Made by a program: the position numbers and the translations under genes
Origin: a virus
Length of the DNA: 64,000 bases
IMG/VR virus record: IMGVR_UViG_3300025163_000003
Reading direction: 5' to 3' (one strand)
In this document: piece after piece, positions 4,947-57,009 of the stretch
Numbering within the stretch: position 1 is the stretch's first letter
Layout: every line of letters begins with the position of its first letter
Notes under the pieces: generated by a model
The model's database searches: none
Told to the model about the DNA's origin: nothing
What the model saw: the letters and a program-made list of their open reading frames with translations, nothing else

Positions 4947-5392
4947 TGGTAAAGTTAATAGAATACATTTGGGATCCAGACCAACATAAGTATGTTTCCT
5001 CAGGGAACACTTTCACTTTTGATCCTCCTCCTTCATCTATTCAAAAGAATGTCAAGTGTGAATGGCGTGTAAAGCACATTGGAAAGAATGAACTTAAGAA
5101 GTTCAAGTGGAGATACAGAAGAACTTCAGCTATTAAGTTGAGAGGAGTCTTACATTCAGAAAGTGACAGACTTACTCTAGAAACTTTAGGTACAAGAAAT
5201 GCTCTCTTCAAATTAGAGATAGACTTTCAAGAACCAAAGAGTGCAGGAGAAGACATTGGTTCTGCTTATCCTCCAACTGGAAGATATGGATACTTCATCA
5301 TAACAGAGATGGTCTTTCAAGGAGTACCAGGACAGAATGATATTCAATATGAAATAACACTAGAAAGAGTTAGAGAAGATCAGGTGGGCTAA
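4946..5392 (+). CDS. tail-tip/baseplate component (distal tail protein position)
   Basis: 148-aa ORF whose ATG overlaps the tape-measure stop (TAATG), immediately upstream of the fibre gene. Confidence 0.4.
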   Translation: MVKLIEYIWDPDQHKYVSSGNTFTFDPPPSSIQKNVKCEWRVKHIGKNELKKFKWRYRRTSAIKLRGVLHSESDRLTLETLGTRNALFKLEIDFQEPKSAGEDIGSAYPPTGRYGYFIITEMVFQGVPGQNDIQYEITLERVREDQVG

Positions 5393-5393
5393 A

Positions 5394-8300: not shown

Positions 8301-10241
8301 ACTTCATCAGTAGAAGGAGTTCACTATGTTTATTGGGAAGATGGTGTTTCAGACTTACAATGGTCAACAGATTATTCAGACGCAGTTGGAGAAGGTAAAG
8401 GTTTAATTGCAATAATAGATAGAAAGACTTCCGAACCTTCTTCTATACTTCCTTTCAATACTTACAAACCAACTATAAGTGCAGGTGTAATAGCTGCCAA
8501 AAGTATTTTAGCTGAACATATACGAGCCAATCAGATAACAGCAGATCATATAGTAACAGGTGCTATTCACAGTGATCATATTGCAGCAGGACAAATAAAA
8601 AGTGATCATATTGCCACAAGTCAGATTGAAGCTAAACACATTAAAGCAGGAGAAATAACAGCTGAAAAGTTAACTGTTGGCTTTGCCAACTACTTACCAG
8701 ATGGTGATTTTGAAATAGGAGATCTTTCCAAAGAATGGCAAGTAGAAACTGGTTCTGCAAGTCTAGACACATATGCTTATTCAGGAAATTATTCACTAAA
8801 AGTAACAGCTGATTATTACAATTCCGACACAGGAAACTATGAGGGACGAGTTCACAGTAGAACTTATATTCCATGTATCGGTGGGGAACGATTTTATATA
8901 CGAGCTAGATTAGACACAACCAACAATGCAAAAGCAAGAATAGAAATAGCCTTCTATGATCAAAACAAAAGTTATATTTCTTCAACTACTGCAATCTCAC
9001 TTCCCTTTACAGGAATTGATTGGACAGAAGGAAAAGTCTCATTTACTGCACCAGACAATGCCTCTTACTTTAGAGTCTACTGTATTGCATTTGAAAGTAG
9101 TAGTGGAGTGAGTGCTAATTTTGATGATATTTATATCAGGAAACAAATCTTCACAGAAGATATAGATGATGATGCTATAGTAGCAAGTAAAATCGCAGCA
9201 GGAGAAGTCAAGACAGAACATATTAGATTCAGTGGTACTCAACCTTCTCAAGTTGAAGCAGGAATGTTATGGTATGATTCTTCAGAACATCTGATAAAAT
9301 TTGCAGAAGGCCCTAATGCAACTGATTGGTATTACATTCCCAAATATCCACTTTATGAATCTATGGCACCTCAAGAAAACTTCATACCAAATCAAAGTTT
9401 TGAGTATGATAGAGATGGTGATGGACAACCAGATTATTGGGAACATCACTGGGATGAAGGAGGATCACCAACTTATGATTATGTTTCCGACCATACAAGA
9501 AAGGGAGGCAAAGCTGTCAAAACAACATGTGACGTAGGTGAAAAGGCAGGTTGGATATCCACAGTCTATATTCCCGTCGCTGAAGGACAGAAATACTATG
9601 CCTCGGTCTGGATCTATTCTGGAAGTGCGAATGCTAGTGGAACAGTCTATTTATTGGCTGAATGTTATGATGCAGAGAAAAATTGGATCAACTACGTAAA
9701 TTTCGCATCAACAAGTCCTCCAGTAAGCAGTTGGAAACAAGTGAGCGGTGTAGCAACTATTCCAACTAACACACGATATATAAGACTAGCATTCAAACAT
9801 GTAAATGAAGATGGTACAAACACAAAATCTGTTTGGTGGGATGACGTAACTCTAAGTGAACTAAGAATGTTACCAGCTTCAGCCTACAGCTCTTCCAGTA
9901 GCGAACTGACTAATATGCTCGAAGGTCAACATACGTTACTAAGCAAAACAGTGTATTGCAATGAAGAATCTTACCTTTGGATTATTGCAATATTCAAAAG
10001 AAAGAATCAAACTACTCAAGTCAGTTTCTTCTTTAAAGTCGACGGGAATGTAAAAGGTCTTACTTGGCCAGTCCTTAGTGAATCCTCTGATTACGTGACT
10101 GATTGCATCCAAGCCCTAGTTCCAGTATCAAAAGGCGATCACACTGTAGAATTAATCTGTTCAGTTGGGTCCTCACCAGCAGCAGCCTCGGTGTATCACA
10201 GGTACATGGTAATTCAAGTCCTAAGACAAATTTCTGCTTAA
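5394..10241 (+). CDS. tail fibre / receptor-binding protein with FN3-like and tandem carbohydrate-binding-module-like domains
   Basis: 1615 aa. Two FN3-like segments (aa ~540-750). A five-fold decapeptide repeat HIxxGQIxxD (EHIRANQITAD HIVTGAIHSD HIAAGQIKSD HIATSQIEAK HIKAGEITAEK) encoded around 8510-8670. Two C-terminal CBM4/9-like jelly-roll-looking domains (YSLKVTADYY...ANFDDIYI and NQSFEYDRDGD...VWWDDVTLSE). Confidence 0.7.
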   Translation: MQYQVIIKDKNTGSTLYTIDEVKIEYVEIELNLSDLSRFHIKVLNDPPMDIEEGDLLYFQIQNIGTGLKTVIGGEILRAKKVIDEGENYLELEGEDFSALLQYKTITSAWEDTDATDIVLDVLSQFPEITTGTYESAGTISYSCTEKTGLEVLQDLHNYTGFEFYVTPNKELKWFDPNEHTGTTLTLSDLENYECYEEAHNIVNFVKVVGDYRSPYPENEAATESDTSNWTSKNGKTIELVNSGGLTPKVGDYCLRVGPYSGDASDEIVYDLGGTLDLTKPGCYKKIEAFYGFDFEGKQNLTTTMKIRLYTDDSNYFETPFGGHWGINITKYWEKKTAKVGPRRGVWYVYGSPDWSQITKVGFYFELSGYSDTWYFYLDGFQFTGGQYNATASDQTSQNTWGLRKAKTVKDNSLTSDEMCQEVANAIIANFKDPVPVLDNLELSEGNETLELGKLIDVQIPEGTFTDKKIVKIVHKIDDGDFITTLSLENPPKTINELVDSLKHRIEHEETEPIIEEEPSPSGTEYHPPPDMSEAVDTSPDPPSFTCANISVVRAESEIETKVAIQVSIPRVEEAGGYLVDYRRTDEPEWRSIIVEQPSAGPATVLISDVELGKDYEVHVASLSKLGTASNFVPDPPCVVTIEADTVPPPAPSTINAYELFNGILLEWPEVTAADLKCYNVLHNTINDLSSASTIAKIDATTYLWKVQDPSTDYAEQYFWVSAEDIYGNESDKTGPAKGTPARAKPIDLTIETRPWTSDIGIIEDHRTFGKFYYGSSPIYYDVSPDTITVGSNTYNQFVNYEPDSSANVVHTRSSSTSYYTTYWGVRVFKVDSSGNESEITDGNPVAIVSRTSDGEGVQTTTWSFPGCTLDPTDRICIKYYSRIGTSDWVEKLNVVTPELGVSSLPAQLWRFKYYTKRLTLYFDQYYTNNYLFFGKDKNTSFLGLADGFIKFADGSSKSILRDTDGTKLTSSVEGVHYVYWEDGVSDLQWSTDYSDAVGEGKGLIAIIDRKTSEPSSILPFNTYKPTISAGVIAAKSILAEHIRANQITADHIVTGAIHSDHIAAGQIKSDHIATSQIEAKHIKAGEITAEKLTVGFANYLPDGDFEIGDLSKEWQVETGSASLDTYAYSGNYSLKVTADYYNSDTGNYEGRVHSRTYIPCIGGERFYIRARLDTTNNAKARIEIAFYDQNKSYISSTTAISLPFTGIDWTEGKVSFTAPDNASYFRVYCIAFESSSGVSANFDDIYIRKQIFTEDIDDDAIVASKIAAGEVKTEHIRFSGTQPSQVEAGMLWYDSSEHLIKFAEGPNATDWYYIPKYPLYESMAPQENFIPNQSFEYDRDGDGQPDYWEHHWDEGGSPTYDYVSDHTRKGGKAVKTTCDVGEKAGWISTVYIPVAEGQKYYASVWIYSGSANASGTVYLLAECYDAEKNWINYVNFASTSPPVSSWKQVSGVATIPTNTRYIRLAFKHVNEDGTNTKSVWWDDVTLSELRMLPASAYSSSSSELTNMLEGQHTLLSKTVYCNEESYLWIIAIFKRKNQTTQVSFFFKVDGNVKGLTWPVLSESSDYVTDCIQALVPVSKGDHTVELICSVGSSPAAASVYHRYMVIQVLRQISA

Positions 10242-13143: not shown

Positions 13144-14043
13144 TTAATTCCCTCCATCTTCAGGAGAGTTCACCTGATAGTGATCCTCTCCTGTTATGAC
13201 TTTCAACAGTCCCTCCTCCAAAGATATTTTAGGTTTCCAACCTAATTTTCTTATCTTGTTGTCTTCTTTTATTTCTTTCCTTTCCCAGTTGACAGGTGGT
13301 TCTGCATCAGTTAATATGACAGGTTTGAAACCATACATTAGTTGTCCTATTAGCAGTCCAAGTTCATAAATTGTCAGTTGATGATTTGTTCCTACCTCAT
13401 ATATTTCTCCCACTTCTCCTTTTTCCATGACTGTTATTAGAGCTTCAACTGCATCAGTGATGTATACAAAGTCTCTTACATCAAGTCCAGTTCCTCTGAT
13501 GTGTAACACATTTGGATTTCTTCTAAGTTTCTCTATGAAGTCAGGAATGACAAAACCTAGTCTCTGTCCTGGTCCATAAACATTCCAGAATCTGACAATA
13601 CTTGCATTCAACTTACGTTTCTTGACTGCTGAAAGAATGTATTTCTCTGCTGTTCTCTTGCTTATAGCATAATGAGAGTCAGGAGCATACTTTATTTGTG
13701 CAGTTGAAGTGAAGATCATCCTACAACGATATTTCACAGCCAAGTCTATTACATTCAATGTTCCAATCACATTTATTTTCAAGTCCCATCTAGGATTTAT
13801 AGTAGCTATTCTTGGTTCAGGATTAGCAGCAAGATGGAAGACAACGTCACAATCTTTCAACAGTGTATCCAACTGGAACAGATCTGTCACATCACAATAT
13901 TTCCAATATCTTCTAAGTTTTCCATCTCTGGGTTCTTTTATGTCAGCTATAATGACTTCATGTCCATCTTTCAAGAGTCTTCTAGCTAGATACGTTCCTA
14001 TGAAACCTGAACCACCAGTTATTACAATTTTCACTTCAGACAC
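13144..14043 (-). CDS. NAD-dependent nucleotide-sugar epimerase/dehydratase (extended SDR)
   Basis: Rossmann motif ITGGSGFIGTYLARRLL and catalytic YxxxK (YAISK). Confidence 0.85.
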   Translation of the reverse strand: MSEVKIVITGGSGFIGTYLARRLLKDGHEVIIADIKEPRDGKLRRYWKYCDVTDLFQLDTLLKDCDVVFHLAANPEPRIATINPRWDLKINVIGTLNVIDLAVKYRCRMIFTSTAQIKYAPDSHYAISKRTAEKYILSAVKKRKLNASIVRFWNVYGPGQRLGFVIPDFIEKLRRNPNVLHIRGTGLDVRDFVYITDAVEALITVMEKGEVGEIYEVGTNHQLTIYELGLLIGQLMYGFKPVILTDAEPPVNWERKEIKEDNKIRKLGWKPKISLEEGLLKVITGEDHYQVNSPEDGGN

Positions 14044-15134
14044 CTCTTCACTACATCTACTACTTCTTTAGCTTCTTCCTCTGTCAACTTGTTGTGTATA
14101 GGTAGAGAGACTATTCGTTTATAGACATATTCTGCATTATGGTGTTGTGTGTGCTGGAAACACCAAGACTTTTGTAGGTGTACTGGCTTCCATGTAATTT
14201 TAAGTTGAATTCCTTCTTTCAAAGCTTCTTTCACAATTTTCAGTTGTTTCTTTCTTGGTACTAGTATTCCAAATAAGAAATAAGGATGGACACATGGATG
14301 GTATTCTCTTGGAACACACTGATATTCCACTGTGTCACCTAATTCATCTTTATAAAGAGAAGCTATTTCTTGTCTGTGCCGTAGAAACTTAGATAATTTC
14401 TTCATCTGAACAACACCTATAGCAGCTGAAGTCTCTGGCATTCTAAAGTTGAACCCTATTCTTGAATGTTTGTATTCCCATGGTTGTTTCTTCTTGTAAT
14501 ATCCTTGGTTCACTATTGCTTTCATCTCTTCATAGAAGATCTTATTGTCAGTTAATATTGCACCTCCTTCTCCTGTGGTAACTATCTTAGCTGAGTGGAA
14601 AGAGAAAGTAGTTATATCAGCAATTGAACCTAACCGTTTGCCCTTGTACATTCCACCTAATCCTTCAGCTGCATCGTCCACCACTACTAATCCTTCTCTC
14701 ATCAAAAGATCATAGTCAGCAGATAGTCCTCCAACATCTGTTGCTACTATAACATTCTTCTCTTTCACTTTAGAGACTTCATATGGATCAATGTTCCAAG
14801 TATCTTTCTGGCAGTCAACTAAAGTGATCTTGTCAGCAAAAGGAACAGCAGCATTTACAGTTGCTATGAAAGTAAAAGTAGGAGCACACAATTTTAGTTC
14901 TCCCAGAAATTCTTTCAGGAAGAAATATACTGTCATCAATGCAGTAGTTCCATTGCAAGTAGCTATTGCATATTTTGCTCCTGTATATTGACAAAGTTTT
15001 CTTTCAAACTCTCTTACCAGTGGTCCATTTCCACCTATCCAAGTAGAATCTACAACTTCATTTAAGATTTCACGTTCTTCTTCACCAATATCTGGACAAG
15101 CCCAAGGTATTCTTATTTTGTATCTAGTACCCAT
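14031..15134 (-). CDS. DegT/DnrJ/EryC1/StrS-family PLP-dependent sugar aminotransferase
   Basis: Motif FSFHSAKIVTTGEGGAILTDN (PLP-lysine context) and overall ~367-aa size. Confidence 0.85.
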   Translation of the reverse strand: MGTRYKIRIPWACPDIGEEEREILNEVVDSTWIGGNGPLVREFERKLCQYTGAKYAIATCNGTTALMTVYFFLKEFLGELKLCAPTFTFIATVNAAVPFADKITLVDCQKDTWNIDPYEVSKVKEKNVIVATDVGGLSADYDLLMREGLVVVDDAAEGLGGMYKGKRLGSIADITTFSFHSAKIVTTGEGGAILTDNKIFYEEMKAIVNQGYYKKKQPWEYKHSRIGFNFRMPETSAAIGVVQMKKLSKFLRHRQEIASLYKDELGDTVEYQCVPREYHPCVHPYFLFGILVPRKKQLKIVKEALKEGIQLKITWKPVHLQKSWCFQHTQHHNAEYVYKRIVSLPIHNKLTEEEAKEVVDVVKRCLK

Positions 15135-15922
15135 TTGTCTCCTCTCCTCACATATCCTACTTTTTCAAGTTCTGACTCAGGAAGAACTCCTCTCTGAACA
15201 TAATATTCAACTGGAAGATGATATTCTCCCTCCTTAAGAACATTAGCATGATAAATTTTGATGTATGGAAGAGCATAGACTTTGTATCCTAGTTTTCTTG
15301 CATTCTTACAAAATTGTAGATGTGGAGCAGGATTCTCCCATCTGACTCTCTTGAAGACTTCTCCTTTTATCAGTATGAAAGTACCAACAGAATCAAGTTC
15401 AACAGGTTTCTTTTCATCTTTGAATGGTGGATTCAAGGAGTCATAGACTTTACCATTCAAGACTACTTTGTCAAATCTATACCCATTTATTCTGAAGACA
15501 TAAGTGTCAAAGAACTGTTTTGTTCCTTCAATGTAGACATAAGGAGCAACAATGTCTTTGTTCACTTTCACCATTTCCTTGAGGGTATTTCTCGGGACTT
15601 GAACAACATCAGTATCAGCAAACAGGACATACTCTTCATCTTTATAGAGTTCCTTGAATGCATTGCACAATTCAGCCACATACAATGAACTTCTAACTGG
15701 CATGTGAATAGGAAATTCTTCATACACTTCATACTTGTAGGAATGTTTCTTGTGAAAGTCAAGAATTATTTGTAAAGTGTTGTCCTTTGACTTTCCATAG
15801 ATCCATACCCAACGTAATTTAGTTTTAGGATAATCCAACTTATTCATAGTTGCTAGAAAACGAGGAAGATACTTGGCATCATTCTTGGTCAATAGACAAA
15901 TCATTATTCTAGGCCACTTCAT
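15113..15922 (-). CDS. GT-A fold glycosyltransferase (GT2-like)
   Basis: N-terminal MICLLTKNDAKYLPRFLATMNKLDYP and DxD-like FADTDVVQV; lies between the aminotransferase and the acetyltransferase. Confidence 0.5.
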   Translation of the reverse strand: MKWPRIMICLLTKNDAKYLPRFLATMNKLDYPKTKLRWVWIYGKSKDNTLQIILDFHKKHSYKYEVYEEFPIHMPVRSSLYVAELCNAFKELYKDEEYVLFADTDVVQVPRNTLKEMVKVNKDIVAPYVYIEGTKQFFDTYVFRINGYRFDKVVLNGKVYDSLNPPFKDEKKPVELDSVGTFILIKGEVFKRVRWENPAPHLQFCKNARKLGYKVYALPYIKIYHANVLKEGEYHLPVEYYVQRGVLPESELEKVGYVRRGDKWVLDTK

Positions 15923-16424
15923 TTCTTTTCACCTCTTTCAGAACAAGTTCCATTTCACATCTTGTTTTATTGTCTGGGAAGAAAGTAACTATCTTCCATC
16001 CAAATTTCTGATACAATTTCAAGGCAGCTTTATTTCTTGTGTCCACAGAAAGACATATTTTCTCTACTCCCAGTTCTCTTGCTATTCTTAAAATGTACTT
16101 GACATGTTCAGTCCCTATTTTTCTTCCTCTGTAAGATGGATGAACTACTATTCCAAATCTACAGTGTTTCTTGTTGGGATAGAATCTGTCCAAATATGCA
16201 AGAGAGATAATCTTGTCATCAAGTGTTCCAACAGTGAAGAGGACATTGTCAGTTGAAAGAATATTAGAGTAAGCAGTTTCTGCATCTCTTCCAAATCTAT
16301 ACCAATGTCTCCATGTTTCTTCATCCAGTTCATTCAGGAATTCTTTAAGTTTTCTCTTGTCTGTCAAACATGAGAATTTTACTCTTTCCATTGTTGAGTT
16401 GAAAGATGTTTGCAATATCTTCAC
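15909..16424 (-). CDS. GNAT-family N-acetyltransferase
   Basis: Acetyl-CoA-binding motif VHPSYRGRKIGTEHVKYILRIARELGVEKICLSV...ALKLYQKFGWK. Confidence 0.75.
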   Translation of the reverse strand: MKILQTSFNSTMERVKFSCLTDKRKLKEFLNELDEETWRHWYRFGRDAETAYSNILSTDNVLFTVGTLDDKIISLAYLDRFYPNKKHCRFGIVVHPSYRGRKIGTEHVKYILRIARELGVEKICLSVDTRNKAALKLYQKFGWKIVTFFPDNKTRCEMELVLKEVKRNEVA

Positions 16425-16426
16425 CT

Positions 16427-17704
16427 TTATGCTATTCTCTTTAGTTTTTTCTTAGAAGTCCTGGGTATTTCATCTGCTATTTCTTTCAAGAAAGGTATCC
16501 AGTGTTTATCTATGGCTACATCCCATGTCTGTCTTCTTGCATATTGCAGTCCTCTCTTTGCATAGTATTTTCTCTTGTTAGGACTCTGATATGCTTCAGT
16601 CATAGCATCAGCAAATCCTTCAGGGTCAGGAATTGAAGACAAACCATTCAACTGAGTGTAGACATAAGTTGCAGGTTTCACCATCCAACCTGCTCTTCCA
16701 TTGTCCACTCTTTCTATCAGTGCAGAGAAACCATTTACAATAACAGGTATTCCACATGCTTGAGCTTCTAGAACTGGCAGACAGAATCCTTCACGTCTTG
16801 AGGGAAGAACAAAGACATCCATACAGTTGTAAACTTTAGCCATTGAACTCTCTGGCAGTCCTAACACTGAAGCAGTATAGACATCATTCCATATTATCCA
16901 CTTGTCAACATTCTCTTGTTTAGCAAGTTCTATCAGATTTCTTCCTCTCTCATTTGTTGGATCTGTATGTATGAAAAGTCTTGCATCTTTAACTGCATTT
17001 GGATTCTGTTCCAAGAAAATTCTGAAAGCCCTGAACAGACAGTCCCATCCCTTTCTAGGTTCATCATCATTGTTTGCAGCTACAACACCAAACAAGAAGA
17101 GATCTTTAGGAATACCAAAATGTTGTCTACATTTCAACTTGTCCATAGGTTTGAAGATATTTATGTCAACACCATGTGGGATATAAGTAGCATCTATTCC
17201 TGCTTTCTTCAACACTTGAACTCCATGTTTACTAGCTACTGCCACCCATTTATAGCTTCTAAATACAGACAACCATTTCTCTGGATAAGAATCATGATCA
17301 ACTGGAGAATAACAGATAGAATTTTCTATCAATTCTGCAAACTTTCTAGACACCCAGAAATCAGCACACCAAACAGCAACATCACAATTTAATCTCTTAT
17401 AATGGTCTCTAACAGTATAGAAACCAAGAGGATCATCAGATCTTTTCTGAACAGGCAATACAAACAGACCTTTGAAGTTGACTATTCCAGGAGTCTGAAG
17501 TCCATAGTAAGCTGAACAGATAACTGAGAATCCTCTGTTGAAAAGACCAAGAGCATTGTAATAAGTTACTTTCCCATAGCCACTACGGATATATGGAGCC
17601 ACTGAATGCCACAGAATCCTGAGATCTCTCCAGTCAACTTTCTCTTTCTTCTGTTCAGGACCTTTTAGTTCTATTTCTAGTCTCGATTCTTTCATGTATC
17701 TCAC
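16427..17704 (-). CDS. GT-B fold glycosyltransferase family 1 (GT4-like)
   Basis: Signature FVLPSRREGFCLPVLEAQACGIPVI (E-x7-E). Confidence 0.8.
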   Translation of the reverse strand: MRYMKESRLEIELKGPEQKKEKVDWRDLRILWHSVAPYIRSGYGKVTYYNALGLFNRGFSVICSAYYGLQTPGIVNFKGLFVLPVQKRSDDPLGFYTVRDHYKRLNCDVAVWCADFWVSRKFAELIENSICYSPVDHDSYPEKWLSVFRSYKWVAVASKHGVQVLKKAGIDATYIPHGVDINIFKPMDKLKCRQHFGIPKDLFLFGVVAANNDDEPRKGWDCLFRAFRIFLEQNPNAVKDARLFIHTDPTNERGRNLIELAKQENVDKWIIWNDVYTASVLGLPESSMAKVYNCMDVFVLPSRREGFCLPVLEAQACGIPVIVNGFSALIERVDNGRAGWMVKPATYVYTQLNGLSSIPDPEGFADAMTEAYQSPNKRKYYAKRGLQYARRQTWDVAIDKHWIPFLKEIADEIPRTSKKKLKRIA

Positions 17705-27550: not shown

Positions 27551-27761
27551 CTCTTCCTCTATACTTCCCTCTTCCTTTATACTTTCCCTTGTATCTTCTT
27601 GTCCTACCTTTAGAATTTCTTGTCAGAGACTTACACAACCACTTTAGAGGACAATTCTTACAGTCAAAGTGTTGTCCATATTCTCCTAGACAATATTTGT
27701 AGGAGTTGCTATAAGACACATTTTCCTCCTCTACATTTTCCATAGATGCTGACATCTTCAT
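27540..27761 (-). CDS. small Cys-rich protein with Arg/Lys/Tyr-rich tail
   Basis: CLGEYGQHFDCKNCPLKWLC followed by RRYKGKYKGRGKYRGRDVY; overlaps the ribonucleotide reductase start. Confidence 0.3.
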   Translation of the reverse strand: MKMSASMENVEEENVSYSNSYKYCLGEYGQHFDCKNCPLKWLCKSLTRNSKGRTRRYKGKYKGRGKYRGRDVY

Positions 27762-29817
27762 CCTCTTCTTCTTTAGATTCTTTTTTCACAGTAGTGAGAA
27801 CTTGAACACTTCTACAACGATCTCTAAATACCGTGATTCCTTTACACCCTAAACGGTAAGCCAACCAGTACACTTTCTCTACATCATGAGGTGTAGCTTC
27901 ATAAGGCAAATTGACAGTCTTAGAGACTGCATTGTCAGTGTATTTCTGAAAGGCCGCTTGCATTCTAACGTGCCATTCAGGAGACACATCATGAGCAGTC
28001 ATAAATAGACGTCTGATATGTTTGGGAATTTCTTCAACATCTTGAATACTTGTCTTGTTTGCTATCTTGTGTATTAGTTCAGGAGAATAGAATCCTTCTT
28101 TCACTGCTATCTCTTCAAACAATGGATTTATCTCTATCAGAGTATGTCCTAAAGATTTCTCTAGATTCCTCATGAGAACAATAGCAAAGAGAGGTTCAAT
28201 ACCACTTGAACAATTAGCTATAATTGAGATACTACCAGTAGGAGCTATAGCAGTTACACATGAGTTTCTGAGATATTTGTACCCTTTCTTCTTCCAGATA
28301 GACCTCTCAAACAATGGAAAGTTACCTTTCTCTTTCCCTAGTCTAACTGATTCTTTTCTTGCTTCTTCAGTGATAAACTTCATTATCTTCTCTGCCAAGT
28401 CAAGTGCTTCTTGAGAGGCATATGGTATGCCCAATAAGATTAACATTTCAGCCCAACCCATTACGCCTAGTCCTATTCTTCTAGTTGACTTTGTAAGTTC
28501 TTCTATCTGTTTCAAGGGATAATGATTAGCATCTATGACATTATCAAGAAATCTAACAGCTAGTCTTACTGTCTTTCTAAGTTTCTTCCAGTCTATCTCA
28601 TAACCAGAATTCTTTCTCCTCAACATCTTCTTCAAGTTGATTGAACCTAGGTTACATGATTCAAAAGGATACAGTGGAAGTTCACCACATGGATTAGTTG
28701 CTTCTATTGGTCCTAAAGATTTCACACAGTTAGAATAGGACTTGTTTATTGTGTCAATGAACAATAATCCTGGATCACCTGTCTTCCATGCTTCTGTTAT
28801 TAGAAGATCCCATACTCCTACCGCTTTTATCTTTCTCACAATTTTACCTGTCCTTGGATTTATCAATGGATATTCTTCATCATTCTCTAGTGCCTTCATG
28901 AACTCATCAGTTACAGCCACTGAAATGTTAAAGTTTTCAAATTTACCTTCTCTTGACTTGCATGTGATGAATTCAATTATGTCTGGATGATGAACAGAAA
29001 GAACTCCCATGTTAGCTCCTCTACGTTTACCTCCTTGCTTTATCTCATTAGTCGCTGCATCAAATACTCTCATGAAAGAGACTGGTCCAGAAGCTACTCC
29101 TCCAGTTGTTCTAACTACATCACCAGCAGGTCTAAGTTTAGAGAAAGAAAACCCTGTTCCTCCTCCTGTCTTGTGAATAATAGCTGCCCATTTAACAGCA
29201 TTGAAGATTTCTTCTAGAGAGTCTTCAACTGGAAGAACAAAACAAGCTGACAATTGTCCTAGTGGTCCACCTGCATTCATCAGAGTAGGAGAGTTAGGTA
29301 AGAACTCAAAGTTAGTCATCATCTTGAAGAATTCTCTTTCTAGTCTCTTCACATATTTCTTGTCCTTGCCATACTTGTATTCCACTTCAGCTATTGTCCT
29401 TGCTACTCTTCTAAACAACTGTTTAGGAGTCTCTTTCACTTCACCATTTTCATCTCTCAACAAGTATCGTTGATAAAGGACAATGAAAGAATTCAGTGGT
29501 AGTTTCAAGTCATTCTCTACACCAACTTTCTTAGCAAAGTCTCTTGCTCTTGCTTTTCGTTCTCGATACAGGATAAATGCTTTGGAAGTCTTGTAGAGTT
29601 TGTTCTGCACTAATGTCTCTTCTATCATGTCTTGTATCTCTTCAACATGCAATACTTCTTTCTTGACTGCTTTTATCTTATTCATCACACCAGAGAAAAC
29701 TTTCTCAAGAGTTTGTTTCTTGTATTCTCCTGATGCAAGTAATGCTTTCTTGATAGCTTGTTTAACTTTACAAGGATTGAACTTGACAACTCTATTGTTT
29801 CTTTTTCTTACCTTCAT
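27709..29817 (-). CDS. ribonucleotide reductase large (catalytic) subunit with N-terminal ATP-cone; probably class II (B12-dependent)
   Basis: ATP-cone [17 protein letters not shown]. Active-site motifs [17 protein letters not shown] and [10 protein letters not shown]-terminal Cys pair CRGGKC. No small-subunit gene in the window, which favours class II, but the class is not provable from sequence alone. Confidence 0.85.
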
Positions 29818-36979: not shown

Positions 36980-37204
36980 TTACCATGTTCTCCTTCTACG
37001 TTTCCATGGTTGACCAGGCAACTTCTTCTGGAGTATTCTCTTTTTATAAATGTTTCTTACACGTTGTTTGGGATTCTTCTTTTTCTTTCGGAGGAATACT
37101 TTCTTCTCACCTTTCTTGTTCTTACGTTCATGTTTGACTTGTGGTCTGTGACCAGGCATGTCTCTTACTTTACCAGCTTTAGCAAGACTACCATGTGTTG
37201 GCAT
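36980..37204 (-). CDS. rps30e: ribosomal protein eS30 (S30e) homolog
   Basis: MPTHGSLAKAGKVRDMPGHRPQV...KKRIL matches the conserved eS30 N-terminus (human FAU-derived S30 has HGSLARAGKVRGQTPKV...RRMQYNRRF). Extremely Lys/Arg-rich, 74 aa. Confidence 0.6.
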   Translation of the reverse strand: MPTHGSLAKAGKVRDMPGHRPQVKHERKNKKGEKKVFLRKKKKNPKQRVRNIYKKRILQKKLPGQPWKRRRRTW

Positions 37205-41484: not shown

Positions 41485-41882
41485 TGTTTCTTCACCTCAT
41501 CAAAACACAATTTCAAGAGAACTTCTGACTTTCCAATAGCTCCTTGTAATGGTATTTCTTTCTTGTATTCCAAGACAGGTTTCTCATCAGCTGGATTCAG
41601 AAACACTATCACTACTTTTCCCTTCAAACATGGTTTCTTTATCTTCAGAAGTAATTTCATTGAAAGAGAAGAAGTGTGATAATCCCAGTTGAGATAAGAG
41701 ATGTCAAGAGGAAGTTTCTTCCCATCTCCATATGCAAAAACTAGTAACTTGCATTTCTGAAGACGAGTAAAGACATGTTTTTGTAAAGACTTCAGTGATG
41801 GATTGTCAAGGTAATAAGGATCATGCAAAATAACTTCTGTCATTTCTTCACCAATAGGAGTAATAGAGTCTTTCCCACTCAT
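41475..41882 (-). CDS. hypothetical protein
   Basis: 135 aa. Confidence 0.3.
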   Translation of the reverse strand: MSGKDSITPIGEEMTEVILHDPYYLDNPSLKSLQKHVFTRLQKCKLLVFAYGDGKKLPLDISYLNWDYHTSSLSMKLLLKIKKPCLKGKVVIVFLNPADEKPVLEYKKEIPLQGAIGKSEVLLKLCFDEVKKQCQ

Positions 41883-43092
41883 TGACTACTGCATTTTTAC
41901 CACGAGTCAAGAAGTCCTTGATTTCTCTCTCTTTTAGTTCTATGTATTTGTCAAACATTTCACTACCAAGAGTCTCTTTCACAAGAGTATCAGATTTCAT
42001 TTCTGAAAGAGCTTCTAGTAATGACTTGGGAAGAGAAGGTAAGTTGTGTTCATAGGCATTACTTGAAAGTGGATCACCAGGATCAATTTTCTTTCTTACT
42101 CCCTCTAGACCAGCTTTCAACAGAACACTTAAGGCAAGATAAGGATTAGCAAGAGGATCAGATGCTCTATATTCAATTCTCATTCTCTCTTCCAAATTCT
42201 GTGAAGAATACAGAGGAACTCTTATCAGACAAGACCTATTCTTGAAACCCCAACTTATGTTGACAGGAGCTTCAGAATTCTTCTTTAGTCGTCTATAAGA
42301 ATTTACAGTTGGGCACATAATGGCTGACATTCCTCTAGCATGTTCCAATATACCACCAATGAAATATCTTCCAAATTGTGAGAGACCATTGTCATAGAAG
42401 AGATTTCCATTGTCAAACATTGAAATATGAAAGTGCATACCATTTCCTGGTAAGTGTGCCCATGGTTTTGGCATGAAGTTTACTTCTACTGTATGACTTT
42501 CTTTCAAGTATCTTCTCAAGAGAAATTTTATGAGAATAATGTTCTCAGAAGTGTTGATAGGAGAAGAATACTTAATACAGATTTCACTCTGGGAAGGACC
42601 AACTTCATGATTTCCATATTCCACATCTAATCCTGCTTTCTCTAAGACTTCCATAGCTTCCATTCTCAGACTTTCTGTTTCATCAGGAAAGATTTGACAG
42701 TATCTGTCAAGTAAATTCTCTGGCTCAAGAGGATTACCATTCTTAGTAAAGTAAAATTCTACTTCTGCTCCTACACGGATATTCTGATGAAATTCTTCTA
42801 AAGTTTTCTCTAAGACATACCTTGGATCAAGAGAGAATCTTTTGTCATCTTGATAGACTTCACAGAAGACTGTTGAGAATGGCTCACTCAAGTCACTGAA
42901 AAATATCTCTTTCTTAGTTCTTTCTATTGGCTTCAGAAGAAGATCAGAATTTTCTATTGTTGCAAAACCATCTACTGAAGAACCATCAAAACCAGTTCCC
43001 TCTTGTAGAACTACTTGATACTTGTCTTCAGGAATTGTTCTTACTCTTAATTTACCATTCAAGTCTAGGAAGAGAAGATAGACTATTTTCAT
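41848..43092 (-). CDS. glnA: glutamine synthetase family protein
   Basis: N-terminal beta-grasp signature GTGFDGSSVDGFATIENSDLLLKP. ATP-binding signature MPKPWAHLPGNGMHFHISMF. 414 aa. Confidence 0.85.
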   Translation of the reverse strand: MKIVYLLFLDLNGKLRVRTIPEDKYQVVLQEGTGFDGSSVDGFATIENSDLLLKPIERTKKEIFFSDLSEPFSTVFCEVYQDDKRFSLDPRYVLEKTLEEFHQNIRVGAEVEFYFTKNGNPLEPENLLDRYCQIFPDETESLRMEAMEVLEKAGLDVEYGNHEVGPSQSEICIKYSSPINTSENIILIKFLLRRYLKESHTVEVNFMPKPWAHLPGNGMHFHISMFDNGNLFYDNGLSQFGRYFIGGILEHARGMSAIMCPTVNSYRRLKKNSEAPVNISWGFKNRSCLIRVPLYSSQNLEERMRIEYRASDPLANPYLALSVLLKAGLEGVRKKIDPGDPLSSNAYEHNLPSLPKSLLEALSEMKSDTLVKETLGSEMFDKYIELKEREIKDFLTRGKNAVVNEWERLYYSYW

Positions 43093-43212: not shown

Positions 43213-43641
43213 TTACCCATTCAGTTCACCCTCCAATTCATCTAACAACTGAATAAAGAATTCAAGTTGTTCTCTCCATTCTCTGTTATCTAACCAAATA
43301 CAGTATCGTAAACGATCACAGTGAAGGCCATAAAGACTGAAACTTAGTTTTGGAGAAAACTTTCTGTCAAGTGGCTTCAAGATTCTATCAATAACTGTCT
43401 CAGGATCAAGAGAAGTTCTGAAGTCAATATGTGCTCTTCTACCTCCTTTCTCTGGATCTTCTCCATGACCACAGCAACTTTGAGTTGTCACTATAAATTT
43501 GTGTCTGTTTATTCTCTCAAGATAAGGAATCATTTCTTCATCTACATATCCCATTTGTATTTCTTCCTTCAGAGATTCTAATCTAAGTCTTCGTTCTTGT
43601 GGTGTCATCCTGTTTCCTTTGAACCTCTCCATCGAAAACAC
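43213..43641 (-). CDS. hypothetical protein
   Basis: 142 aa; QSCCGHGED motif; start region overlaps the topoisomerase 3' end. Confidence 0.3.
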   Translation of the reverse strand: MFSMERFKGNRMTPQERRLRLESLKEEIQMGYVDEEMIPYLERINRHKFIVTTQSCCGHGEDPEKGGRRAHIDFRTSLDPETVIDRILKPLDRKFSPKLSFSLYGLHCDRLRYCIWLDNREWREQLEFFIQLLDELEGELNG

Positions 43642-45253
43642 CTAATTCTTTCATGGCCCATTCAAACTTCTTTCTTAGACTTTTTGAATATGCTTTTTCA
43701 ACAGGATAATTGTATTTCAAACAGTACTTCAGAATTCTTCTTGGGTCAATGTATGAATTGAGAGAAGTGTTCAAGTTCCATTCAGCTGTTTCCTTTGTAA
43801 CTTCATAATCAAGTCTGTACTCAACTATCTTCTCCTTAATCTTTCTTATTCGTTCAAGTAGTCTTGCTTTCTGTTTCTCTGTCTTTGCCTTCTTTAACTT
43901 TTCTTCCAATTCCTTCAACTTTTCTTCATACTTCTGTATCCTTTCTTCTTTCTTCTTTAGTCTCTCTTGAAAGTTCTTAGGTAATTTCTTCTTGTGGTTA
44001 AGTCTTTTAGCAACATCACAATTGATAAGTTTGAAGGCTGTCTTCTTCAGATATAATGGTGAGTCTTCCTTGACTTCATAAAGGGAAGTGTACTTTTCTT
44101 CTGACATTTCCCATGTCTTACCAGCTAAGTGAGTCCTGAATATCTTTGCAGTTGCATTTGGAATTACTTCTTGTAAGAACTTGGCTATCTTCTTAGAATT
44201 CAAAGAGTCAAACACTCTCTGTCCTTTAGGAGTCTTCTTCCACAGTTTGAAGAAAACTTTGTGAATATCAGAAGGAAGCTCCAACTCTCTATGCCATGGG
44301 ACAAAATCTTTCCCTATGAAGTCAAGAATAACTTTGTTTCCTTCAAACTGAATATTTTCTTTTTTGAGTGTGGTACAACCTACGTTCCCTGTTTCACCAG
44401 CTATCTTTTCATCACCAACTCTAATTCCCATTTGCTGTATCAACCATACAGCAAGACCTAATTTCTGTCTTTCTTCATCATCTGAGAGAATAGCACTCTT
44501 GATGTGTTTGTCTAATTTCTTTTGATACTTGGGAATCTTAAGAGCTAGATCCCATTTCTTCTTTGCTCGTTCTTGTCTTATAACTGAATCCATACTGAAC
44601 CAGACATACTTCCACTTTCCACTGAGAGGATCTCGCCAACGAGCTATGTATAATTTGTCTGGCTTCCATTCTACCTTCCATCTTCCATCCGGTCTCGGTG
44701 CATCAGGAGATAAGTTGAGTATGATCTCCTCTTCCTTGATCCTTCTTTTGTAGCGTCCTCTCAGTGGATGTTTTCCTTTTGAAATATATAGTCCTGGTGG
44801 CTCAACTGTCCAATTCATAATTGGTACTCTTTGTCCATCCACAATAGCATATCCATATTTCTCCTTCAATGCTTCCCTCATCTTCTTTCTATCTTCTCTT
44901 AGTTTCTTCTTCATCTCTTTAGGTAAGTTCTTCTTCAGTTCCTTCTCTTTCTGTAATGCTTCATAGACCGATGAAAAGTCAAAGTCTTCCAACTTTACTT
45001 CTTCTTCAATGTTGAGTGCTATTCTCAAATCAGACAAGAAGTTGTTGACAAAGACTTCATCTTTCATGTAGTCAGTATCAAATTTCTTGACAAATGCAAC
45101 TACCATTTCTTCTTGTTCTGGTGTAAGTTTTATTTTCTTTCCTTTGTACTTGATAGTGTATCCTTTTGGCTCATAGGGAGGGATGTAAACTCCATTGTGT
45201 ATCAGTTGTTTCATAAGATTTCCCTCAGATACTTCCAAGCAAACCAAGTACAA
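43583..45253 (-). CDS. eukaryotic-type DNA topoisomerase IB
   Basis: HNGVYIPPYEPKGYTIKYKGKKIKLTPEQEEMVVAFVKKFDTDYMKDEVFVNNFLSDLR aligns with the human TOP1 core (HKGPVFAPPYEPL...YDGKVMKLSPKAEEVATFF...KEIFRKNFFKDWR). The active-site Tyr context TSLNSYIDPR matches TSKLNYLDPR. Confidence 0.9.
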   Translation of the reverse strand: MYLVCLEVSEGNLMKQLIHNGVYIPPYEPKGYTIKYKGKKIKLTPEQEEMVVAFVKKFDTDYMKDEVFVNNFLSDLRIALNIEEEVKLEDFDFSSVYEALQKEKELKKNLPKEMKKKLREDRKKMREALKEKYGYAIVDGQRVPIMNWTVEPPGLYISKGKHPLRGRYKRRIKEEEIILNLSPDAPRPDGRWKVEWKPDKLYIARWRDPLSGKWKYVWFSMDSVIRQERAKKKWDLALKIPKYQKKLDKHIKSAILSDDEERQKLGLAVWLIQQMGIRVGDEKIAGETGNVGCTTLKKENIQFEGNKVILDFIGKDFVPWHRELELPSDIHKVFFKLWKKTPKGQRVFDSLNSKKIAKFLQEVIPNATAKIFRTHLAGKTWEMSEEKYTSLYEVKEDSPLYLKKTAFKLINCDVAKRLNHKKKLPKNFQERLKKKEERIQKYEEKLKELEEKLKKAKTEKQKARLLERIRKIKEKIVEYRLDYEVTKETAEWNLNTSLNSYIDPRRILKYCLKYNYPVEKAYSKSLRKKFEWAMKELGVFDGEVQRKQDDTTRTKT

Positions 45254-51803: not shown

Positions 51804-52014
51804 ACTTCACCCGATTAAGTCTAGCTTCTAATTCTGCCACTCGTCTTTCTAAGTCTCTTAATCTTCTAAGAATTTCTTCCAACTTAGAGTAAGGATCATA
51901 GAGAGGAACTCTTGACACTTGAAACTCTTCTCTCAATGGATAGCCACAATTAGGACAGACTGGTACAGTCCCTTCCATTTCCCAACCACATCTAGGACAT
52001 TTCACTCTTTTCAC
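51796..52014 (-). CDS. Zn-ribbon + coiled-coil protein
   Basis: CPRCGWEMEGTVPVCPNCGYPL followed by LEEILRRLRDLERRVAELEARL. Confidence 0.4.
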   Translation of the reverse strand: MKRVKCPRCGWEMEGTVPVCPNCGYPLREEFQVSRVPLYDPYSKLEEILRRLRDLERRVAELEARLNRVKYV

Positions 52015-53251
52015 CTTTCAGTTCAGCTTTCACTTTCTGGTATACTCTATACAACACTTTTCCATCTATCTCTCCTATTCTTCTGTGAATTGTGGAGAGA
52101 ACTACTCTCTTGTTATCTAAGTCTATTCCTGCCAACTGAAGTCCTTCCATTATCTCCTTCACGACATCTTTAAGATCTTCTGGTGTTGGCATCAAGTATC
52201 TTCTTATTTCTGCTTTCACTCTGTCAATAGAATTCTCATATAACTCTGGTGTTACATCCTCCAAGAGTTCCTCTCTCACCTTAGGCTCTATGTCCTCTAT
52301 TTTCTCTAGTTCTGGATAGTTCTCGAGGACTTTCCTAATTGCTTTTCTGATGATACTTTTAGGGATAGTTGTTCTTGCATGTTCCCAACATTTCTCTTTT
52401 ATCTCTTCACACTTCAGTTTAGCCATTAACTCATCTTTCAAGTCAGTGTCATAATACTTAGCAACTAGACCTTCCATTCCATCTGGTTTCACTTCTTTCT
52501 TCAGTTCAAATTCTAGTCTCTCTATTTCCTTAGCAGTGAGTTCACCAGACCAGATTTCTTTTACTCTTCTCAGACCATTCGACCATGCTAATTCTTTAGT
52601 CTTGGACCAAGGAAGAAATCTCATTGTCTTCATGTCAACTATGTCAAATACTTTGAAGTCAATTGGAACTGAATATTGAATGAAATCTGTAGGATTCAAT
52701 GCTCCATAAAGTTCTCCAAATACAAGATATCCGTCTTTCAGAACTCTCTGTATTCTCTCATGTGTTCTTCCATCCTGTACTTTCATGAACAAGTCTTTCC
52801 ATGAAGAGATTCCTCTCTTGGCAGCTGGAGCTGTTTGAAGATCCCATCTAGGAACTAGTCTTGTCTTCCCCATTATTGTTCCATCTGGGAGCATGAAGAT
52901 ACCTAAGTTTGTACCATCAACTTTCTCTTGACAGACAACATGCTTTCCTTTCACTTCTGTCTCATCTGCATATCTTAGTTTGGGATATCCACGAACAATA
53001 AAGAGTTCTTTATCGAAGAAAGAGACAATCGTACCCATCAGACTATTTCTCTTCTGATAGATTATTCCTCTCCACTTGTGACCATTGATGCTATAAGAGA
53101 ATTCTTTCATATCTGCTGGTTTAGCATTCCATAGTTCGGAGACAGTTGCTCTAATACTCTGTAAGCTTTTCTTACCTTCCAACTCTTCTCTCAAGATGTC
53201 AAGTCTTTTACAAGTGGGTAATTCCATCACATTTACTTTCTTCACTTTCAA
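51992..53251 (-). CDS. ATP-dependent nucleic-acid ligase (Rnl2-like KxDGTN motif; RNA or DNA ligase)
   Basis: Motif I VCQEKVDGTNLG, motif III-like FKVFDIVDM, motif IV MEGLVAKYYD, motif V LMAKLKCEEIKEK. Confidence 0.7.
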   Translation of the reverse strand: MKVKKVNVMELPTCKRLDILREELEGKKSLQSIRATVSELWNAKPADMKEFSYSINGHKWRGIIYQKRNSLMGTIVSFFDKELFIVRGYPKLRYADETEVKGKHVVCQEKVDGTNLGIFMLPDGTIMGKTRLVPRWDLQTAPAAKRGISSWKDLFMKVQDGRTHERIQRVLKDGYLVFGELYGALNPTDFIQYSVPIDFKVFDIVDMKTMRFLPWSKTKELAWSNGLRRVKEIWSGELTAKEIERLEFELKKEVKPDGMEGLVAKYYDTDLKDELMAKLKCEEIKEKCWEHARTTIPKSIIRKAIRKVLENYPELEKIEDIEPKVREELLEDVTPELYENSIDRVKAEIRRYLMPTPEDLKDVVKEIMEGLQLAGIDLDNKRVVLSTIHRRIGEIDGKVLYRVYQKVKAELKGEKSEMS

Positions 53252-55846: not shown

Positions 55847-56146
55847 CTAAGAGATATAAGACATACTTCTCCTTTCTTCTTGAGCATTAATCCACTTGAG
55901 AGTGTACCACACTCCAAAGCATACACCAGCTCTAAGAGAGACTTCATCTAAAGATTTCCCTTTGAATATCGTGTTGTTCCACCAATTCTCTACTTCATGA
56001 GTCAACATCTTTTCAACTTCTCTTGAATCTTTACCTTGTAACAAGTCATCAATTGCTTCCTCTATCTTCTTCATGATTTCCTTGTAATTGTTCTTATCTA
56101 CTTTTCCCTTCTTACGTTTCCAGAACAAATTTAATTCCTCATGCAA
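55847..56146 (-). CDS. hypothetical protein
   Basis: 99 aa. Confidence 0.3.
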   Translation of the reverse strand: MHEELNLFWKRKKGKVDKNNYKEIMKKIEEAIDDLLQGKDSREVEKMLTHEVENWWNNTIFKGKSLDEVSLRAGVCFGVWYTLKWINAQEERRSMSYIS

Positions 56147-56387
56147 TATATTCTAAACGCATCTTCCTTATCTTCTTGACACTCTCTCTTGAACCATACA
56201 ATTCAGCTAAAGAGTTGAAAAGATTATAGAGAATTTGTTCAGACAGTGGTGGATCACAGTCTAAGTGCAACTTGTATTCTCCATTTGTCAGTTCAGCTTT
56301 GATAGTAACTTTGAACTTGTCTAATGCTTTCTCTTTCCTGTTATTAGATGAACTATTCTTATGTTTCTTGAACCGCATCTTGGACAT
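56139..56387 (-). CDS. hypothetical protein (5' extent uncertain; overlaps the eL40-like ORF)
   Basis: 82-aa ORF; its low-complexity basic N-terminus overlaps 56321..56494 in another frame. Confidence 0.25.
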   Translation of the reverse strand: MSKMRFKKHKNSSSNNRKEKALDKFKVTIKAELTNGEYKLHLDCDPPLSEQILYNLFNSLAELYGSRESVKKIRKMRLEYIA

Positions 56388-56494
56388 TTGTTTTCAGACC
56401 TTCTGAATTTCTTGTGGCATTTCCTACATAGTTTGAAATGTCGTCTACGGGAATATTGTGCTATTCTCAGTTTCACAGGGTCAATAATTGGCAT
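56321..56494 (-). CDS. rpl40e: ribosomal protein eL40 (L40e) homolog, C4 Zn ribbon
   Basis: Unlisted 57-aa ORF: MPIIDPVKLRIAQYSRRRHFKLCRKCHKKFRRSENKCPRCGSRNIRIVHLITGKRKH. Compare human eL40: [49 protein letters not shown]. ATG 2 nt after the alba stop. Confidence 0.55.
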   Translation of the reverse strand: MPIIDPVKLRIAQYSRRRHFKLCRKCHKKFRRSENKCPRCGSRNIRIVHLITGKRKH

Positions 56495-56495: not shown

Positions 56496-56753
56496 TTACT
56501 TGCCTAATGTCAGCTCAATGAAAGAGACATTCTTCTGTCCCTGTTGTGTGTCAATTGTCTCTGTTCCTATCTTTATCTCTTTAAGTTGAATGTCAGTTGC
56601 AAATCTGTGTCTGACTATTTCAGCAACATCAATAGCTTTTGATATCAGTCTTCCTCTTGCTTTGATGACAATATCTTCTTTTCCTCTAAGTCTAGAAAGA
56701 ACAGCAACTACATATGTCATAGTTGGTTTCTTTCCAATTAGAATCTCAGCCAC
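56496..56753 (-). CDS. albA: Alba (Sso10b-type) DNA/RNA-binding chromatin protein
   Basis: ILIGKKPTMTYVVAVLSRLRGKEDIVIKARGRLISKAIDVAEIVRHRF...VSFIELTL matches the Alba fold consensus. Confidence 0.85.
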   Translation of the reverse strand: MAEILIGKKPTMTYVVAVLSRLRGKEDIVIKARGRLISKAIDVAEIVRHRFATDIQLKEIKIGTETIDTQQGQKNVSFIELTLGK

Positions 56754-57009
56754 TTCTCTTCACCTCTTGTTTCTTCTTAGTGACTTTAATTTCTCTCTCT
56801 TTCTGAAGTTCTTGAATCTTGACACCTAACTCATTTATAGTTTGACTCAGGTCTTCTATTTCTTCTTTCAAGAAGTTTACTGCATTGACTAGGTTTGTAT
56901 ATTTCTCAAGCAGTTTCTTAAGTCTGACATTCAGTTGGAAGTATTGTTTTGAGACATCTTCTATTCCCAACTTGTTCACCTCTAATAGTCTGGTAAGACA
57001 CCTATACAC
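56746..57009 (-). CDS. coiled-coil protein
   Basis: 87 aa. Confidence 0.3.
   Translation of the reverse strand: MYRCLTRLLEVNKLGIEDVSKQYFQLNVRLKKLLEKYTNLVNAVNFLKEEIEDLSQTINELGVKIQELQKEREIKVTKKKQEVKRSG

Follow-up and report, generated by a model that had tools for sequence, protein, structure and literature searches.

The ribosomal proteins eL40 and eS30 are small, lie at functional centres of the ribosome and in eukaryotes occur as fusions with ubiquitin or a ubiquitin-like protein. Virus-encoded ribosomal proteins are already known, mainly as bacterial types in phages. Phages carry many bacterial-type ribosomal proteins (PMC6375957, PMC13157829), the L21e protein of haloarchaeal viruses was described as the first ribosomal protein of an archaeal virus (PMC8651126), and eL40 was reported in giant eukaryotic viruses (PMC11499249). 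In one of the latter, FloV-SA2, the eL40 gene is 84.6% identical to the host gene and represents a recent capture (PMC11499249). eL40 is a small, late-assembling protein of the large subunit, which particular viral mRNAs in eukaryotes need for their translation (PMC11499249), and infection leads to the recruitment of additional eL40 to ribosomes (bioRxiv 10.1101/2025.10.24.684008). The searchable literature contained no account of an archaeal virus with eL40.

The DNA analysed here (the window, a stretch of 64,000 nt from IMG/VR record IMGVR_UViG_3300025163_000003) looks like part of an uncultivated archaeal tailed-virus genome. Directly after its alba gene lies a short ORF, which the original prediction had read as eL40, and this reading is backed by sequence, predicted fold, conservation and viral context. 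What is new in comparison with the viral ribosomal proteins described so far is a virus-only eL40 clade and the presence of a second homologue, eS30. The features of the region are the following:

56321..56494, minus strand: eL40-like gene, 57 aa, ATG start, pI 11.6, 19 Lys and Arg residues
56441..56494, minus strand: N-terminal segment of the eL40-like protein (aa 1–18), MPxxDPxKLxIAQ motif and helix, aligning with archaeal eL40 from residue 1
56375..56428, minus strand: C4 zinc ribbon C23, C26, C37, C40 (CRKC-x10-CPRC), read from the sequence
56496..56753, minus strand: alba, 85 aa, upstream of the eL40-like gene with a 1-nt spacer
56139..56387, minus strand: 82-aa gene without an assigned function, in the -1 frame relative to the eL40-like gene, whose 3' end it overlaps
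56321..56387, minus strand: dual-coding overlap of 67 nt, eL40-like codons 36–57 with the stop codon and codons 1–23 of the 82-aa ORF

The protein resembles the eL40s of TACK and Asgard archaea, such as those of Saccharolobus solfataricus (2AYJ), S. acidocaldarius (8HKU) and Pyrobaculum calidifontis (9E6Q), at 45–57% identity. Shared with them are the size (about 50–57 aa), the very basic character, the N-terminal MPxxDPxKLxI(A/V)Q helix, the C-x2-C-x10-C-x2-C pattern with a CRxC first knuckle and a Lys before the third Cys, the S-x-N-[LI]-R stretch after the fourth Cys and the predicted fold. The viral protein differs in signature residues presented below, in falling under the Pfam and NCBIfam cut-offs and in its viral instead of housekeeping gene context. 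Like the eL40s of FloV-SA2 and other Imitervirales (PMC11499249), it is encoded by a stand-alone viral gene without a ubiquitin fusion, and the best structural match of its predicted (shallower) model in BFVD was the eL40 of Mimiviridae sp. ChoanoV1. However, the giant viruses belong to Nucleocytoviricota and the virus studied here appears to be a tailed archaeal one; in contrast to the FloV-SA2 gene, the nearest cellular eL40s are only 47–57% identical and the protein belongs to a separate virus-only clade.

L21e of haloarchaeal viruses (PMC8651126) is likewise an archaeal/eukaryotic-type large-subunit protein found in archaeal tailed viruses, but the protein, the virus group (PolB only 25–28% identical) and the environment are different, and the present genome contains eS30 as a second homologue. 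Phage bS21 and further viral ribosomal proteins of the bacterial type (PMC6375957; Chen et al. 2022, cited in PMC11499249) are also small, basic and late-assembling. The bS21 gene is sometimes located among structural genes, as is one relative described below (L009), and replacement of the host copy by bS21 has been proposed (PMC11499249, PMC6375957). Nevertheless, bS21 is not homologous to eL40, is specific to bacteria and belongs to the small subunit.

Gene arrangement and coding potential

The alba gene, the eL40-like gene (product MPIIDPVKLRIAQYSRRRHFKLCRKCHKKFRRSENKCPRCGSRNIRIVHLITGKRKH, 57 codons on the minus strand) and the 82-aa gene are arranged head-to-tail and tightly packed inside one long leftward gene run. 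The alba product matched Pfam Alba PF01918 (E = 1e-17, 64 bits with a cut-off of 25) and NCBIfam TIGR00285 (106.9 bits with a cut-off of 88.25). A strong ribosome-binding site, GAGGTGA, is present at alba, and the eL40-like gene has just the alba stop codon one base upstream. The TAA stop of alba (56498..56496) is followed by a single spacer base (56495) and the ATG of the eL40-like gene (context GGCAAGTAAA ATG). The predicted adjacency of this ATG to the alba stop was thus found, with a spacer of one base instead of 2 nt. The 108-nt gap between alba and the 82-aa ORF was as described, the C-x2-C-x10-C-x2-C assignment (C23, C26, C37 and C40) was correct, and the overlap with the 82-aa ORF in another frame is real, its length being 67 nt with the stop codon rather than 66 nt. 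The observation as a whole was confirmed, its factual parts being right to within one nucleotide.

The window contains 927 stop-to-stop ORFs of at least 30 aa, so a 57-codon ORF by itself is not above chance. It is the homology and the conservation, not the length, that single out the eL40-like ORF.

The coding potential of the region was evaluated with contigs from other samples, five of them identical in the region and two (L007 and L008) about 97% identical. Outside the overlap, all three substitutions detected in the eL40-like ORF (56456, 56426 and 56405) were synonymous changes of third positions. In codons 40–79 of the 82-aa ORF, 10 of 10 distinct substitutions were synonymous in its own frame. 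As the substitutions are synonymous in each frame, both frames are considered to be under purifying selection. The interval 56269..56404 (136 nt), which contains the overlap, had no substitutions in either variant, about 3.4 being expected from the average rate over the aligned 1163 nt, computed by hand.

The sole alternative start of the 82-aa ORF located downstream and before codon 63, TTG at 56270 (codon 40), would abolish the overlap and was rejected, since it reads TTA in the variant strains. The 82-aa ORF therefore starts at ATG 56387 or 56378 and the overlap is real. The N-terminus of this ORF had been regarded as weakly supported, a view that was not sustained: the ORF is under purifying selection, its start lies upstream and the overlap is genuine. 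With the thresholds applied, the 82-aa protein could not be placed in any Pfam, NCBIfam or PHROG family. A programmed -1 frameshift between the eL40-like and the 82-aa ORF was also considered and set aside; the frames fit, but no X XXY YYZ slippery heptamer was seen in the overlap when the sequence was inspected by reading.

Taken together, the eL40-like ORF is almost certainly a real gene. Gene calls from JGI, ENA and Logan give the 82/79-aa ORF and lack the eL40-like ORF, which is called in the GenBank record alone. Its shortness and the overlap are the reason why it escaped most gene callers. Since callers miss such genes and the sole calling pipeline put this one in a cellular MAG, small viral ribosomal-protein genes are likely under-counted.

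Relationship to archaeal eL40 and the virus-only clade

The search with the Pfam Ribosomal_L40e model, proposed together with the original prediction, gave no match at E ≤ 1 and returned generic zinc-ribbon families only. The same model (PF01020, gathering threshold 23 bits) gave no match at E ≤ 1 for the viral-clade proteins L009, P0104, P0105 and P0117 either. The NCBIfam L40e model NF003161 reached 15.8 bits over residues 8–47 (E = 0.0076), with a cut-off of 54. Since genuine cellular relatives (P0027, P0039, P0010 and P0014) scored just 23.3–36.3 bits with PF01020, a diverged member falling below the Pfam threshold is unsurprising, and the failure of both models was judged to reflect their probable insensitivity, not missing homology.

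The alignment with archaeal L40e proteins, proposed as another check, gave a full-length match from residue 1. In a phmmer search against the whole PDB, the top three matches were archaeal eL40s (9e6q_Ag, 2ayj_A and 8hku) with E of 3e-5 to 4.8e-5, and the alignments ran from residue 1 to residues 46–48, covering the MPxxDPxKLxIAQ motif outside the ribbon. Generic ribbons (Spt4, reverse gyrase) came next, with E ≥ 0.005 and residues 20–45 only. A profile of five viral-type sequences gave the same ranking, with the best E of 4.4e-6.

A set of 90 cellular eL40s was gathered, most of them with a precomputed PF01020 match and two without it but named L40e by NCBI. The hhalign comparison of the viral clade with this set gave a probability of 98.8% (E = 9.3e-17, 55 columns, 42% identity). 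When an HMM built from cellular eL40s only was run against the 927 ORFs of the window, the eL40-like ORF scored 40.0 bits (E = 1.1e-11) and the runner-up 9.3 bits (E = 0.043); the same HMM matched all nine other viral-type proteins with 22–40 bits. A word-indexed protein search with the single sequence returned only the protein itself, and relatives were obtained with an alignment seeded by PDB eL40 fragments. The homology is visible only with archaeal eL40 sequences or profiles, not with the curated Pfam and NCBIfam models.

The N-terminal segment outside the zinc ribbon distinguishes eL40 from generic zinc ribbons. Residues M1, P2, D5, P6 and K8 are common to the viral protein and the three crenarchaeal eL40s, and the first four of these show little or no variation among the 90 cellular eL40s. 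The four Cys are invariant in the viral clade as well as in the cellular set. An AF2 model built from viral sequences only (pLDDT 79) predicted a helix at residues 6–18 and the fold typical of eL40, with the N-terminal helix packed on a small zinc-ribbon sheet. The top Foldseek match of a shallower model in PDB was the eL40 of P. calidifontis. The fold-search statistics were modest in absolute terms (E = 0.015) because the protein is tiny. The eL40-like ORF is therefore very probably a homologue of eL40.

Proteins 41–67% identical to that of the window were detected on at least nine other contigs (L009, L016, L018, L021, L022, L026, L027, L029 and P0104). The same ORF, which was to be looked for in related viral contigs, was thus found, also at loci without the 82-aa ORF. 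L009 is an IMG/VR contig, and all nine relatives are located in unrelated contexts, without alba and the 82-aa ORF. With the window protein they make up a viral-type clade of ten members under purifying selection.

In this clade the linker that joins helix and ribbon is longer by one residue, a derived trait absent from the cellular set. Other derived traits are C[HRK]KKF(R) in place of the cellular CGARN(P), with F in the knuckle, CPRCG in place of CRRC and R-x-V-H in place of R-x-K; in some members the Cys spacing is x9 instead of x10. Residues invariant or nearly invariant in cellular eL40 were replaced (G26 by H/R/K, A27 by K, N29 by F, R37 by P and K47 by V, in P0010 numbering), whereas the four Cys, R23, K35, R38 and R45 (same numbering) were retained. 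Because cellular-invariant residues were replaced and one residue was added, the rRNA interface may have changed in the viral clade.

When 1.84 billion representative proteins were searched exhaustively by HMMER with the viral profile, only five clusters were obtained at E < 1e-10, and the scan of 185,579 species-representative genomes revealed no viral-type copy, so the protein is too rare for an eL40 of a cellular lineage. No eL40-like ORF was detected by tblastn in 50,697 deposited phage and archaeal-virus genomes, where only weak matches to the NrdD zinc ribbon were obtained. On these sequence comparisons, the clade is small, found only in virus-like contigs and characterized by its own signature, and it diverged long ago instead of being newly copied from a host.

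The nearest cellular eL40s, those of Ca. Culexmicrobium/Methanomethylicota and Bathyarchaeia, end with NLRWK(K/R)RE and are 47–57% identical, the value varying with the alignment (57% in local BLASTP). The N-terminus of the L009 protein agrees with the Bathyarchaeia sequence MPIMDPYKKALAQQ at 13 of 14 positions. Cellular matches at 40–49% identity were scattered over TACK and Asgard lineages. The assignment of a host or donor from eL40 (Methanomethylicota/Culexarchaeia or Bathyarchaeia) was abandoned as a mere hint, the signal in about 50 residues being too weak.

Viral context and the eS30-like gene

The GC content of the window is even (36–40%), no tRNA was found in it, and ORFs of at least 80 aa from 12 kb to the right end are mainly on the minus strand. 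On the left side, a tail module was identified:

1217..10241, plus strand: tail module with two minor-tail-like genes, a chaperone-like ORF, a tape-measure-like gene (791 aa), a 148-aa ORF and a fibre gene (1615 aa, with a CBM)

The two minor-tail-like proteins matched PHROG phrog_290 (7.7e-8 and 1.1e-8) and the fibre matched CBM_4_9 (5.9e-9), whereas the tape-measure matches were weak and the 148-aa ORF gave no match. The rest of the window encodes a family B DNA polymerase, ribonucleotide reductase, eukaryotic-type topoisomerase IB, glutamine synthetase, RNA ligase, a MoxR-like ATPase, a ParB-like protein and many ORFans. The best matches of PolB among deposited viruses were haloarchaeal tailed viruses, at 25–28% identity. 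No close relatives of the virus were obtained from IMG/VR scans with PolB and the eS30-like protein.

The neighbours of the eL40-like gene are co-directional ORFans or genes of phage-family proteins, with no housekeeping genes adjoining. In L009, the eL40-like gene is located between the genes of the terminase large subunit (3.2e-37) and the major head protein (1.8e-9), and at the remaining viral-type loci small co-directional ORFs follow one another, none of them matching a family. In contrast, cellular eL40 loci carry TruD, aspartyl-tRNA synthetase, succinyl-CoA ligase, TFIIB and Lsm genes. The suspected location in an archaeal virus and not in host DNA was borne out by the tail module, the ORFan and phage-family neighbours and the terminase/head-protein context in L009, and it is highly likely that the DNA is viral rather than cellular.

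A protein identical to that of the window is present in GenBank as RLG18192.1, "50S ribosomal protein L40e [Nanoarchaeota archaeon]", on a 7.1-kb contig binned in MAG GCA_003660945.1. We read the Nanoarchaeota label as a binning artefact; the sequence has thus been in GenBank under the right protein name and the wrong biological label.

The second ribosomal-protein homologue of this genome is the following:

36980..37204, minus strand: eS30-like gene, 74 aa, N-terminus MPTHGSLAKAGKVR

Its product stayed below the curated cut-offs, with 26.6 bits for NCBIfam S30e NF006817 (E = 3.8e-6, cut-off 75) and 16.4 bits for Pfam PF04758 (E = 0.01, cut-off 27). However, all 45 listed PDB matches at E ≤ 1 were eS30 proteins (best 9fhl_e, E = 0.0016), and the MPxHGSLxKAGKVR motif is common to the eS30-like protein and eS30. 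The gene, already noted in the original prediction, thus looks genuine. A search with the protein returned only its own cluster. The presence of the eS30-like gene supports a putative ribosome-directed role.

Proposed role and alternative explanations

The explanation preferred here, with a probability of roughly 0.55, is that the gene encodes a genuine, diverged archaeal eL40 homologue from a virus-only clade, which would occupy the eL40 site of the host ribosome. As suggested by the gene layout, it would be transcribed as part of a long operon running leftward, and the position of its ATG, one base after the alba stop, suggests that alba and the eL40-like gene may be translationally coupled. 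This 57-aa, very basic protein would then take the eL40 site on the host 50S subunit, replacing or supplementing the host eL40, an occupancy proposed on the basis of the known properties of eL40 and the analogy with phage bS21. Ribosomes with the viral eL40 could favour viral mRNAs or keep working during a host shut-off of translation, and the eS30-like protein may act likewise on the small subunit. Incorporation of the viral protein into ribosomes, taken by itself, is given somewhat less than an even chance. The wider proposal, that a lineage of archaeal tailed viruses keeps a long-diverged eL40, here together with eS30, which is inserted into host ribosomes and yields virus-specialised ones, is more tentative still. 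Some archaeal viruses may accordingly alter the host ribosome with their own parts. Of the ribosomal proteins, eL40 has the clearest link to the selective translation of viral mRNAs in eukaryotes; should the viral protein be inserted into ribosomes, archaea would offer an equivalent of this dependence of viral mRNAs on eL40, and virus-driven ribosome specialisation would become open to study in archaea.

Two of the alternatives question the gene itself or its origin. The ORF might have arisen by chance or encode a generic zinc ribbon unrelated to eL40, the 82-aa ORF being the only real gene, as the choice of the JGI, ENA and Logan callers and the purely generic Pfam matches would have it. This is extremely improbable: substitutions in the eL40-like ORF are synonymous only, the gene is kept where the 82-aa ORF is missing, and the eL40 match is full-length and takes in the N-terminus outside the ribbon. 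True generic matches, obtained in the IMG/VR, metagenome and GTDB scans (L010, L011, L012, L017 and L025) and discarded, share just the CPRCGS knuckle within larger unrelated proteins. Judged by the hhalign comparison, the synonymous substitutions and the cellular-eL40 HMM search, such a reading is already refuted. Very unlikely, and already largely refuted, is also a cellular gene, i.e., the own eL40 of a fast-evolving member of Nanoarchaeota (DPANN) located on the host chromosome. The identical protein deposited as Nanoarchaeota L40e in GCA_003660945.1 speaks for it, but the binning of a 7-kb contig is weak evidence. Tail genes lie in the same window, the neighbours are ORFans or phage-family genes with no tRNA, unlike true cellular eL40 loci with TruD, AspRS, TFIIB and Lsm, and the L009 relative is flanked by terminase and capsid genes. 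Moreover, five clusters among 1.84 billion representatives and 0 of 185,579 species-representative genomes are too few for a cellular lineage.

The remaining alternatives accept the eL40 ancestry and concern the function. Alba is a chromatin and RNA-binding protein, and the apparent translational coupling to its gene would suit an eL40-derived protein that was exapted, does not bind the ribosome and acts as a small, basic nucleic-acid-binding protein of the zinc-ribbon type, which might condense or protect viral DNA or RNA with Alba, or else as an internal virion protein. Such a role is possible, although well below even odds. In agreement with it, the pI is 11.6, several residues invariant in cellular eL40 were lost, the clade diverged long ago and does not stem from recent copying of a host gene, and the L009 homologue sits between terminase and the major head protein. 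However, most members keep the eL40-specific N-terminal helix motif, which is unneeded for generic ribbon binding, and the majority of the basic positions that are conserved in cellular eL40 (K8, R24, K36, R39 and R46), the eS30 homologue in the same genome points to the ribosome, and the adjacency to alba is not conserved at other viral loci. A competitive decoy, which would bind the eL40 site or an assembly factor without being functional and block the host 50S subunit as a shut-off device, is improbable. The overall retention of eL40 shape and charge together with changes of strictly conserved cellular residues could be explained in this way, but the virus needs host ribosomes, there is no precedent for a decoy in PMC6375957, PMC8651126 or PMC11499249, and no sequence feature argues specifically for inhibition.

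Counting against the preferred explanation are the replaced cellular-invariant residues, the link to Alba in this virus and the location of the L009 gene in a head-morphogenesis module; this location would suit a virion or DNA-binding role no less than a late-expressed modification of the ribosome.

Ribosomal-protein homologues and the overlapping gene

36980..37204 (-), eS30-like gene, 74 aa, pI 12, product beginning MPTHGSLAKAGKVR
56139..56387 (-), 82-aa ORFan, overlapping the eL40-like gene at 56321..56387

The comparison of the eS30-like protein with the NCBIfam S30e model gave an E-value of 3.8e-6, which was under the cut-off, and all 45 matches listed at E<=1 in the PDB search were eS30. 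Only near-identical relatives of this protein, and no others, were found in the protein collection. With the eS30-like and eL40-like genes, a single viral genome carries two homologues of archaeal/eukaryotic-type ribosomal proteins.

The 82-aa ORFan represents a real gene. Its first ~22 codons lie in the -1 frame relative to the eL40-like gene, across the stretch that encodes the conserved zinc ribbon and tail. No strain differences were detected in the 136 nt around the overlap of the two genes. The overlap is a genuine dual-coding stretch and its length is unusual for a viral operon.

Genomic neighborhoods of eL40 and alba

In cellular genomes encoding the eL40 proteins nearest to the viral clade, Alba was located 0.3-3 kb from eL40 (L013:2942-6162, L019/L024 and L020:3430-4139). 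The loci compared came from Bathyarchaeia MAGs and a contig with eL40 like those of Ca. Culexmicrobium, and they also contained sucC-sucD and an Lrp gene nearby, with the single-strand order sucC-sucD-eL40-Alba in L020. In the virus, the pairing of alba with eL40 may reflect a host neighborhood captured as a unit, or it may be a coincidence; alba was absent from the other loci with viral-type eL40.

In one of these, the IMG/VR relative L009, the eL40-like gene (6001-6177) was located inside the head module (region 758-9491), in the order terminase large subunit, 424-aa ORF, 451-aa LamG/DUF2341 protein, eL40-like protein, 40-aa CxxC mini-protein, 633-aa protein and major head protein. Such a location suggests late expression or even packaging.

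A 7.1-kb piece of the window's virus was found in GenBank (QMVE01000026.1, GCA_003660945.1) within a MAG labelled Nanoarchaeota archaeon, and its Alba and L40e are consequently on record as cellular proteins of that organism. The Nanoarchaeota assignment is probably a binning artefact.

Upstream of alba, the coiled-coil ORF (56746..57009, -) is interrupted by a premature stop (Q81*) in the strain variant L007 (5435-5677), where alba starts with ATG in place of the window's GTG; the 8-nt overlap of the two genes is thus not conserved.

Auxiliary and sugar-modification genes in the window

43583..45253 (-), complete topoisomerase IB of eukaryotic type, with matches to three Pfam domains at E 1e-49, 3e-42 and 1e-15
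41848..43092 (-), glutamine synthetase
27709..29817 (-), ribonucleotide reductase, class I/II-type, with ATP cone
51992..53251 (-), RNA ligase
13144..17704 (-), sugar-modification cluster: NAD-dependent epimerase/dehydratase, DegT/DnrJ aminotransferase and GT4 glycosyltransferase

The first four genes form an auxiliary set unusual for an archaeal tailed virus. A possible role of the sugar-modification cluster is glycosylation of components of the virion or the host surface.
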